Shown: one piece after another, positions 12,449-13,109 of the stretch
Numbering within the stretch: position 1 is the stretch's first letter
Layout of the letters: every line of letters starts with the position of its first letter
Source of the DNA: Escherichia phage RB69
Sequence record: NC_004928.1
Length of the DNA stretch: 64,000 bases
Strand: one strand, 5' to 3'
Translations under genes and position numbers: made by a program
The notes under the pieces: model-generated
What the model saw: the letters and a program-made list of their open reading frames with translations, nothing else
Databases searched by the model: none
Told to the model about the DNA's origin: nothing

Positions 12449-12736
12449 TTACAGAAGAGTTTTTGCAATAATTTTAAGCTGAGCTACAGAAATATGCTTA
12501 GCTTTAAACAGTGCAGTCTCTTCAGCCGGAGAGATAACAATAGTAGCGCCATCTTTCTTAGCAGACCATCCATCCCCTAAGTAAACAGTACCTTTTACTT
12601 CTTCGCCGTCAACCAGACTAATCATTGGTTTACCCTCACGTCCTTTATTTGCTTTAATAACTTCGGAAGTAAGGGTTGCTTCGGTCAGAGTAGAAACGTT
12701 AGCAACAGGTGATATAAATTCTTTATAGGTTTTCAT
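12449..12736 (-). CDS. internal head protein-like (capsid-targeting N-terminus)
   Basis: Start at ATG 12736 gives MKTYKEFISPVANVSTLTEA...; T4 IP-type leader with L-x-E site. Confidence 0.65.
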   Translation of the reverse strand: MKTYKEFISPVANVSTLTEATLTSEVIKANKGREGKPMISLVDGEEVKGTVYLGDGWSAKKDGATIVISPAEETALFKAKHISVAQLKIIAKTLL

Positions 12737-12768
12737 TTTAGGTTCCATTTTGTTGTTTTGATAGGACT

Positions 12769-12798
12769 ACTATAACATAGTCCTATCGTGTTGTAAAA
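12769..12798 (-). promoter_or_regulatory. sigma70-type early promoter inside inverted repeat
   Basis: Minus strand TTTTAC(18)TATAGT within ataggactactataacatagtcctatc. Confidence 0.55.
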
Positions 12799-13109
12799 TA
12801 TTTTATGCCTTTAGATGAAATAGTATTCTGGCGTTTGACCCCTGTTTGTGAAAAATCATGGTTATCAATTTGGTCAACTCGCATAACACCAAATGCAGAT
12901 TTAATTTTAGCCTTTGAACCTTTTTTGATACTAATTACCATATAAGTATCATTTTTCTTATATTCGAAATTTGTTACTTCAACGCCTTGATTAGAAATTG
13001 ACTTAATAATAGCATTAGCGTATTCATCATCTAACGGACCGTTAGTGTTAATAACAAAATTTTTATCTGCTTTAGTAGCTTCCGCGATGAATTCTTGATA
13101 GGTTTTCAT
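12783..13109 (-). CDS. internal head protein (IPI-like position)
   Basis: N-terminus MKTYQEFIAEA identical in type to T4 IP leader; lies next to 57B as ipI does in T4. Confidence 0.7.
   Translation of the reverse strand: MKTYQEFIAEATKADKNFVINTNGPLDDEYANAIIKSISNQGVEVTNFEYKKNDTYMVISIKKGSKAKIKSAFGVMRVDQIDNHDFSQTGVKRQNTISSKGIKYFTTR

Follow-up and report, generated by a model that had tools for sequence, protein, structure and literature searches.

The stretch of DNA analysed here (the window) comprises 64,000 nucleotides of Escherichia phage RB69 (sequence record NC_004928.1), numbered from its first letter. At 12449-13109 the window contains two adjacent genes for internal proteins (IPs), ip7 and ipI, located between acb1 (gene 57B of T4) and a homologue of trna.4. 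Every gene around the locus is on the minus strand, in the transcription order gene 1, 57A, 57B/acb1, ip7, ipI and trna.4 homologue:

13877-14611, minus strand: gene 1, dNMP kinase
13642-13872, minus strand: 57A (PF17594)
13187-13642, minus strand: acb1 (T4 gene 57B), anti-CBASS 2H phosphodiesterase, the upstream flank of the ip locus (PF23474)
12783-13109, minus strand: ip7 (phrog_2667; identity to Ip7 of RB15, T2 and JK42)
12449-12736, minus strand: ipI (PF11634, 2JUB, phrog_4363)
12192-12398, minus strand: trna.4 homologue, small membrane protein, the conserved downstream flank of the ip locus (phrog_1692 at E 2e-32)

Taken as a whole, this region is very probably the canonical hyperplastic ipI locus of a T4-like phage, delimited by acb1/57B and trna.4 and holding two known cassettes, first ip7 and then ipI, which would encode packaged and injected IPs and are bracketed by promoter-early stem-loop (PeSL) elements. 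An initial annotation, made from the sequence alone, had placed two open reading frames (ORFs) with MKTY(K/Q)EFI leaders at 12449-12736 and 12783-13109, and both are present, on the minus strand. The window belongs to a T4-like phage. Escherichia phage ChristianSchoenbein (Bas46; classified Mosigvirus) and similar phages share 97% identity with the first 25 kb of the window, and the segment 12300-13700 is 96% identical to Shigella phage JK42, also classified Mosigvirus (a classification carried by the closest relatives' records in the phage collection and by most of the closely related phages). The trna.4 gene has the same position in T4, T2, RB15 and Shf125875.

The ORF 12449-12736 encodes 95 amino acids (aa), with the N-terminus MKTYKEFISPVANVSTLTE. 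Its product was matched to the Pfam family IPI_T4 (PF11634) with an E value of 1.3e-50 and 169.7 bits (cut-off 25), the profile being covered over its full length (1-76 of 76), and to phrog_4363; the full-length protein is 88% identical to T4 IPI. Residues 20-95 are identical at 72 of 76 positions (95%) to PDB 2JUB, the nuclear magnetic resonance structure of T4 IPI*, and this alignment begins exactly at residue 20, right after LTE19, the known gp21 cleavage point. The junction reads STLTE/ATLTSE, with an L/I-x-E gp21 site directly before the mature N-terminus ATLTSE, so that residues 1-19 form the propeptide, ending in LTE, and residues 20-95 form mature IPI*. The four substitutions in the mature domain equal in number the differences from T4 IPI* published for RB69 IPI, a protein that protects RB69 from GmrSD (PMC6024577). 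In T4 and RB69, IPI is injected and inhibits GmrSD, a type IV restriction endonuclease (PMC12373910, PMC6024577).

Judged from these alignments, ORF 12449-12736 is an orthologue of T4 ipI. It shares with T4 and RB69 IPI the length of 95 aa, the propeptide length, the LTE-A cleavage site, the position between 57B and trna.4 and the early promoter/hairpin context, and differs from T4 IPI in propeptide residues 5-17 and in the presence of ip7 between 57B and ipI. Because the T4 order is 57B-ipI-trna.4, the ipI of the window is at its ancestral position, with ip7 interposed before it. An in-frame ATG lies four codons upstream of the ipI leader (12737-12748, minus strand; MEPK-MKTY...), and the same ATG is the annotated start of the ip9-like gene of PTE-Eco05 and phiE142. 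The shorter ipI start is more likely, since the upstream ATG has no Shine-Dalgarno sequence and a GGA stands 7 nt before the MKTY ATG.

The ORF 12783-13109 encodes 108 aa and starts with the leader MKTYQEFIAE, which is exactly the ten-residue capsid-targeting sequence (CTS) of T4 IPII and IPIII; the next residue is A11, as in IPII and IPIII. Cleavage by gp21 is predicted after IAE10 and would leave a mature protein of 98 aa with an isoelectric point (pI) of 9.6. The protein was matched to phrog_2667, 'internal head protein', with an E value of 8e-39 over the whole profile (1-101 of 101), and is 67-68% identical over 103 aa to Ip7 of RB15 and T2 and 96% identical to the product of the JK42 gene annotated 'Ip7 protein'. 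The family is annotated as Ip7 in T2, JK42 and Shf125875, and was named in the 1994 RB15 deposit GenBank Z35082 ('RB15 DNA for Ip5, Ip9, Ip7, Ip8'). By its sequence relatives, then, ORF 12783-13109 is Ip7, of a family named in 1994. A leader of about 10-11 residues with Y/F4, F7, I8 and E10 is typical of T-even internal proteins and is present here; in the aligned homologues M1, K2, E6, F7, I8 and E10 are invariant. The N-terminal beta-alpha-beta-beta core is acidic; the C-terminal half is strongly basic (+7.8), highly conserved and predicted to be disordered. The leader, size, basic character, locus, full-length identity and very conserved C-terminal half are shared with Ip7 of RB15 and T2. 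The T-even Ip genes, Ip7 included, are reportedly treated by Repoila et al. 1994, EMBO J 13:4181.

Among 50,697 phage records, the Ip7 family was found in 281 and IPI in 290; the Ip7 allele of the window is divergent, with about 25 records at 90% identity or more. No match to Ip7 was obtained in Pfam, PDB sequences or NCBIfam. An exhaustive phmmer search with the mature Ip7 domain against 1.84 billion representatives (50%-identity clusters) returned three proteins, and a separate search for homologous proteins returned eight, all the named ones being from phages; in these searches no Ip7 homologue was detected outside T4-like phages. Literature searches returned no functional study of Ip7.

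The initial annotation had regarded the pair as a set additional to the T4 complement and had held that mature domains simply equivalent to known T4 IPs would speak against its proposal. The first view fails, as ipI is T4's own gene at its canonical position and its neighbour belongs to the Ip7 family; in ipI, one of the pair, the mature part is indeed a known T4 domain (95% identical to IPI*).

The two genes are flanked 5' and 3' by an early promoter with an overlapping inverted repeat, within a 51-nt direct repeat that is present three times: ahead of ip7, between the two genes, and after ipI. A sigma-70-type promoter on the minus strand is present in every copy, with TG before the -10 hexamer in all three; its spacer and -10 hexamer are enclosed in a hairpin of 10-12 bp in each case (energies are RNA minimum free energies, and z-scores are relative to dinucleotide shuffles):

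13128-13178, minus strand: PeSL-A, upstream of ip7; TTTACA-N17-TACTAT, 12-bp hairpin, -16.6 kcal/mol, z -4.1
12753-12803, minus strand: PeSL-B, between ip7 and ipI; TTTACA-N17-TATAGT, 11-bp perfect hairpin, -16.6 kcal/mol, z -6.7
12400-12450, minus strand: PeSL-C, downstream of ipI and upstream of trna.4; TTTACA-N17-TATAGT, hairpin of -11.1 kcal/mol, z -3.1

PeSL elements are also said to be treated by Arbiol et al. 2010. In the T4/PST pair, the PeSL was defined as TTTACW-N17-TAYWAT plus a stem-loop that overlaps it; such elements cluster in hyperplastic regions and have been linked to insertions and deletions (indels) (PMC4122927). The same study (Comeau et al. 2014) credits Repoila et al. 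1994 with the observation, at the IP locus of T4, to which the PeSLs go back, and quotes the description of the T-even ip flanks as about 70 bp in which an inverted repeat overlaps an early promoter (PMC4122927). The repeats at the ip locus fit these published elements: the TACTAT copy agrees exactly with the consensus and the two TATAGT copies have one mismatch in the -10 hexamer. Like published PeSLs, they are intergenic composites of about 50 nt that recur along the hyperplastic region, and cassette boundaries between close relatives fall at them. They differ in the stem, which in the window (GATAGGACTA/TAGTCCTATC) exceeds the 'AGNA-loop-TCNT' of PST/T4 in length and conservation, and in the -10 hexamer, which is TATAGT, one mismatch from the T4/PST consensus, in most copies. 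The motif and hairpin scans bear out the initial annotation in that each of the two genes has its own putative early promoter within an inverted repeat, i.e. the PeSL supplies a promoter motif to each cassette.

Four further copies were found, all of them in the variable region that extends from e to the tRNA genes:

about 5187-5252 (5239), minus strand: PeSL with nearly the same stem
about 3892-3957 (3944), minus strand: PeSL with nearly the same stem
about 8287-8352 (8339), minus strand: degenerate PeSL with nearly the same stem
about 8002-8067 (8054), minus strand: PeSL with a different stem

The element is therefore a general feature of the variable region and not specific to the ip pair. 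The promoter-hairpin stands directly upstream of ip7 and ipI and, among the hits listed, directly upstream of none of the other four leader-bearing genes of the window (described below), in a scan that listed RNA hairpin energies only and included no gene-by-gene look at upstream regions. Transcripts from a PeSL's own promoter would start within the 3' arm and would thus lack the hairpin; read-through transcripts from upstream would carry it at the 3' end of the preceding gene.

The end of ip7 overlaps one of these elements. The stop codon TAA of JK42 ip7 is TAT in the window (12783-12803, minus strand), which adds the five C-terminal residues YFTTR; the extended ORF ends inside PeSL-B, and its last five codons read through the -35 hexamer of PeSL-B. 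Matches over all 108 Ip7 residues were obtained by tblastn in FL18 and AV115, which suggests that the extension is common to some other isolates.

The ip locus is said to have been defined, in Repoila et al. 1994, by variation 'in the number, the order and the identity' of its ip genes. The gene order is 57B-ipI-trna.4 in T4, 57B-ip5-ip7-trna.4 in T2 and 57B-ip5-ip9-ip7-ip8-trna.4 in RB15. For comparison at the ipI locus of T4-like genomes, as the initial annotation had proposed, the 57B-trna.4 interval of the window was aligned with those of close relatives having a closely similar genomic backbone. JK42 has the same ip7-ipI arrangement as the window, and F2 and Bas46 have ipI alone. In PTE-Eco05 and phiE142, ip7 is kept and an ip9-like gene replaces ipI: similarity to the window stops just past the leader ATG and returns inside the PeSL-C hairpin. 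The Mosigvirus-classified phage Shf125875 has the reverse order 57B-ipI-ip7 with an RB15-type ip7 allele, its ip7 thus lying downstream of ipI, whereas that of the window lies upstream. In F2, PeSL-A and an ip7-type ribosome-binding region are joined to the body of ipI, and the crossover is inside ATGAAAACCTAT, within a direct repeat that covers the start of both leaders:

13087-13113, minus strand: ip7 copy of the leader-coding direct repeat (27 nt; identity between the two copies 93%)
12714-12740, minus strand: leader-coding direct repeat, ipI copy, 27 nt

The alignment thus shows loss, replacement and reversal of order of the cassettes at their boundaries. When the 781-bp ip7-ipI segment was compared with the phage collection by megablast, only JK42 matched at least 80% of it in one place; the combination is rare in the collection and each piece is common. 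The ip locus, its polymorphism and its promoter/inverted-repeat flanks were already described in 1994 and 2010-2014 (PMC12373910, PMC4122927).

We suggest that the PeSLs and the conserved leader-coding sequence act as short homologies through which cassettes would be lost, swapped or reordered between phages. A possible but less favoured explanation is that the PeSLs are only regulatory, each consisting of an early promoter and a hairpin that stabilises or terminates RNA, and that turnover proceeds by ordinary homologous recombination, chiefly in the leader-coding 5' ends. The F2-type deletion junction agrees with this, as it is in ATGAAAACCTAT of the leader-coding repeat and not in a hairpin. 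The PeSL hairpins have no following U-run and are therefore not classical intrinsic terminators; we count the missing U-run in favour of the regulatory explanation as well. Opposed to it are the 3' boundary of the ipI/ip9-like replacement, which is inside PeSL-C, the presence of PeSL copies at 5239, 3944, 8054 and 8339 in the variable region, and the published comparisons in which PeSLs are associated with indels (PMC4122927).

The function of the two cassettes can be approached through the IPs of T4. The CTS comprises the first 10 residues, of which 4 and 7 drive targeting and 8 and 10 processing; the cleavage site of gp21 follows L/I-x-E, and each head contains about 300 copies of every IP, which are ejected with the DNA (PMC9026906). 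Both predicted proteins of the window start with the T4 CTS and carry an L/I-x-E gp21 site, and the initial annotation was right to take both genes for internal-protein (capsid-targeted) genes. By analogy with T4, IPI and Ip7 would be built into the prohead core and trimmed by gp21 after LTE19 (IPI) or IAE10 (Ip7); trimmed IPI* and Ip7 would be kept in the head and injected with the DNA, after which IPI* would block a modification-dependent restriction nuclease of the GmrSD type.

For Ip7, the characterised IPs provide the comparison. Each of Ip1, Ip2 and Ip3 inhibits a GmrSD variant of its own, with no cross-protection (PMC12373910), and an Ip of Bas37, encoded at this same locus, inhibits McrBC (bioRxiv 10.1101/2025.11.20.689424). 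T4 IPII and IPIII (directed against GmrSD variants) share the leader and the packaging logic with Ip7, and Bas37_0260 (directed against McrBC) shares the leader, the packaging logic and the 57B-trna.4 locus, where it stands beside ip5; none of the three resembles Ip7 or the other leader-bearing genes of the window beyond the first 10-19 residues. By this analogy, Ip7 most likely blocks another early-acting nuclease or defence that attacks modified DNA. Tentatively, Ip7 may inhibit a defence that no characterised Ip covers, for example a GmrSD or type IV variant like that of UTI89, by which RB69 is restricted even though it carries IPI, and the conserved, basic and probably disordered C-terminal tail may be the interaction element; ip7 together with ipI would then widen the host range of the phage. 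The identification of Ip7 with the McrBC inhibitor Bas37_0260 was considered and rejected: Bas37 (MZ501089) has ip5 and an unrelated 77-aa Ip, whose likeness to Ip7 is limited to the leader.

Ip7 might instead be a basic, DNA-associated head-filling protein that serves charge neutralisation and DNA packing or ejection, its variability reflecting weak constraint and not anti-defence. This is unlikely in our judgement, although the pI of 9.6 of the mature protein and the basic (+7.8), predicted disordered C-terminal half are in agreement with it, as are the binding of T4 IPs to DNA at low salt and the long-held view that they are DNA-associated (PMC9026906), and the Ip7 family is missing from many close relatives without obvious harm. 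Every Ip for which a function has been found (four) specifically inhibits a type IV restriction enzyme, and presence or absence across hosts fits host-range accessory genes. In addition, the strong conservation of the C-terminal 40 residues of Ip7 from genus to genus speaks for a specific partner and not for generic charge.

The interpretation of the region as a hyperplastic locus with two cassettes for injected anti-restriction proteins has several points against it. The AlphaFold2 model of Ip7, built from a 9-sequence alignment, is mediocre (mean predicted local distance difference test score (pLDDT) 63.7; about 67-85 in the core, residues 11-70, and below 50 in the tail, residues 79-108), and a Foldseek search of the model against the PDB gave only generic ferredoxin-like, ACT and RRM matches, at E 0.08 or worse, with no resemblance to IPI*. 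Ip7 is related neither to Bas37_0260 nor, beyond the leader, to IPI, IPII and IPIII, and its proposed anti-defence role is drawn from analogy only. Packaging, cleavage and injection in the phage of the window are likewise extrapolated from work on T4. When the late promoter TATAAATA was sought next to the ip genes, none was present nearer than 14227, inside gene 1. As to the cassettes, the single deletion junction that could be mapped is in the leader-coding repeat and not in a PeSL, and the part of the PeSLs in recombination may be that of any short homology rather than a specific one.

Upstream, the locus adjoins acb1. The acb1 product was matched to PF23474 with an E value of 7.4e-59 and 198 bits (cut-off 27); it is 86% identical to T4 57B over 151 aa and both H-x-T motifs (HST and HIT) are conserved. 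The neighbourhood noticed in the initial annotation is real, with ip7 directly downstream of acb1 on the minus strand, and the anti-defence island proposed there is plausible; it is not new, as Hobbs et al. 2022 (PMC9117128) already described acb1 and ipI of T4 as an 'anti-defence island', and the acb1-ipI adjacency is ancestral synteny common with T4. The window and the T4 island have in common acb1 and ipI, their orientation and the flanks 57A and gene 1, and differ in the additional ip7 cassette that the window has between acb1 and ipI.

A six-frame scan detected six leader-bearing ORFs in the window, all on the minus strand and all in the first 13.1 kb. The strict leader pattern had four matches in the window and none in each of 100 shuffles; the leaders at 183 and 922 deviate from it. 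Apart from ip7 and ipI, the ORFs are:

1-119, minus strand: leader-bearing gene, 5' part only (window edge), MKTYKEFIAE; phrog_3966; full 70-aa homologue in Bas46
183-443, minus strand: leader-bearing gene MKMYQEFIIE, distant relative of the Ip7 family; phrog_2667 at E 1e-21, weak BLAST likeness to Ip7 and Ip8
922-1203, minus strand: Ip5-like leader-bearing gene; phrog_3499 at E 2e-44, 46% identical to Ip5 of RB15, T2 and Bas37
9550-9990, minus strand: leader-bearing gene MKTYAEFLTE, frameshifted, at a third polymorphic site below rnaC; phrog_2280

This agrees with the initial annotation, which had counted at least six such genes: one of the six is cut by the window edge, one is frameshifted and two have deviant leaders. 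Its further remark that this doubles the complement of T4 is correct as a count (six versus three) and unremarkable as an observation, since RB15 has four ip genes at one locus; at least ten Ip types have been counted (PMC12373910). When T4 IPII and IPIII were compared by BLASTP with the six leader proteins of the window, the search being limited to those six, matches extended only across the leader. It is highly improbable that the leader-bearing genes form a novel, expanded set of injected proteins and a new anti-defence island around acb1 beyond known T4-like content: six leader-bearing ORFs in 13 kb compared with three in T4, four of six leader families without assigned function and the single JK42 match to the ip7-ipI segment would favour this, but the family matches already largely refute it, both genes belonging to named families (IPI and Ip7), and the locus, its polymorphism and flanks (1994 and 2010-2014) and the acb1-ipI island (2022) were described before, and relatives have as many leader-bearing genes or more (Bas46 has the extra bas46_0241).

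The finding is thus already known, every component having a named precedent: IPI (PF11634, 2JUB), Ip7 (Z35082), the CTS, the PeSLs and Acb1. It is of little importance as a discovery, because the genes, the leader, the promoter-hairpin flanks, the shuffling and the acb1-ipI neighbourhood are all in the literature. Its practical value is as a natural series in closely similar backbones (ipI alone, ip7 + ipI, ip7 + ip9-like and ipI + ip7), which could help to assign targets to Ip7 and to the four other uncharacterised leader-bearing proteins of the window. All Ips with a function assigned to date act as specific inhibitors of type IV restriction enzymes.

Some minor features of the other leader-bearing genes and their surroundings were also recorded. 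The product of 183-443 is 29% identical to Ip7 over 65 aa (BLAST), and its mature part is acidic (pI 4.9), unlike that of Ip7; possibly the gene is a distant paralogue of ip7, at the ip locus on the denV side. The Ip5-like gene 922-1203 and the lysozyme gene e share an ATGA (1200-1203, minus strand), in which the start of the former overlaps the stop codon of the latter. The layout is the same in Bas46, and the overlap suggests that the Ip5-like gene is translationally coupled to e and is not expressed from a promoter of its own.

Compared with bas46_0240 of ChristianSchoenbein, which is intact and encodes 188 aa, the gene at 9550-9990 lacks one nucleotide between 9623 and 9624. The last 66 residues are thereby replaced by a 24-residue out-of-frame hydrophobic tail, giving a product of 146 aa, and the remaining reading frame continues in the ORF 9428-9613. 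Either the mutation is genuine and inactivates the gene, or the base was lost through a sequencing error. At about 10081-10093 the window lacks a segment of about 530 bp that is present in Bas46 (L009 10124-10654) and that carries bas46_0241, a leader-bearing gene of 154 aa starting with MKSYAEFLTEQSSS (MKSYAEFLTE...); at that site JK42 has a different leader-bearing gene (MYTFNEFLAE..., 208 aa), which replaces the 9550-9990 gene. From the differences in Bas46 and JK42 it follows that the third ip site, below rnaC, is also polymorphic.

The stretch 10078-10425 (minus strand) is 92% identical to the rnaC/rnaD region of T4 (small stable RNAs, species 1 and 2), has a tRNA-like T-arm and ends in a GC-rich hairpin followed by a U-run. 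Rfam 15, searched over 9000-14000, reported two tRNAs only and no family at 10078-10425, and the mechanically called ORF 10024-10209 over this rnaC/rnaD-like stretch is probably spurious. Finally, a tRNA with the anticodon CAT lies at 10868-10941 (minus strand); it is tRNA-Met according to ARAGORN and to the JK42 annotation, and its orthologue in the Bas46 record is annotated as tRNA-Ile (ATA), which implies a modified C34.

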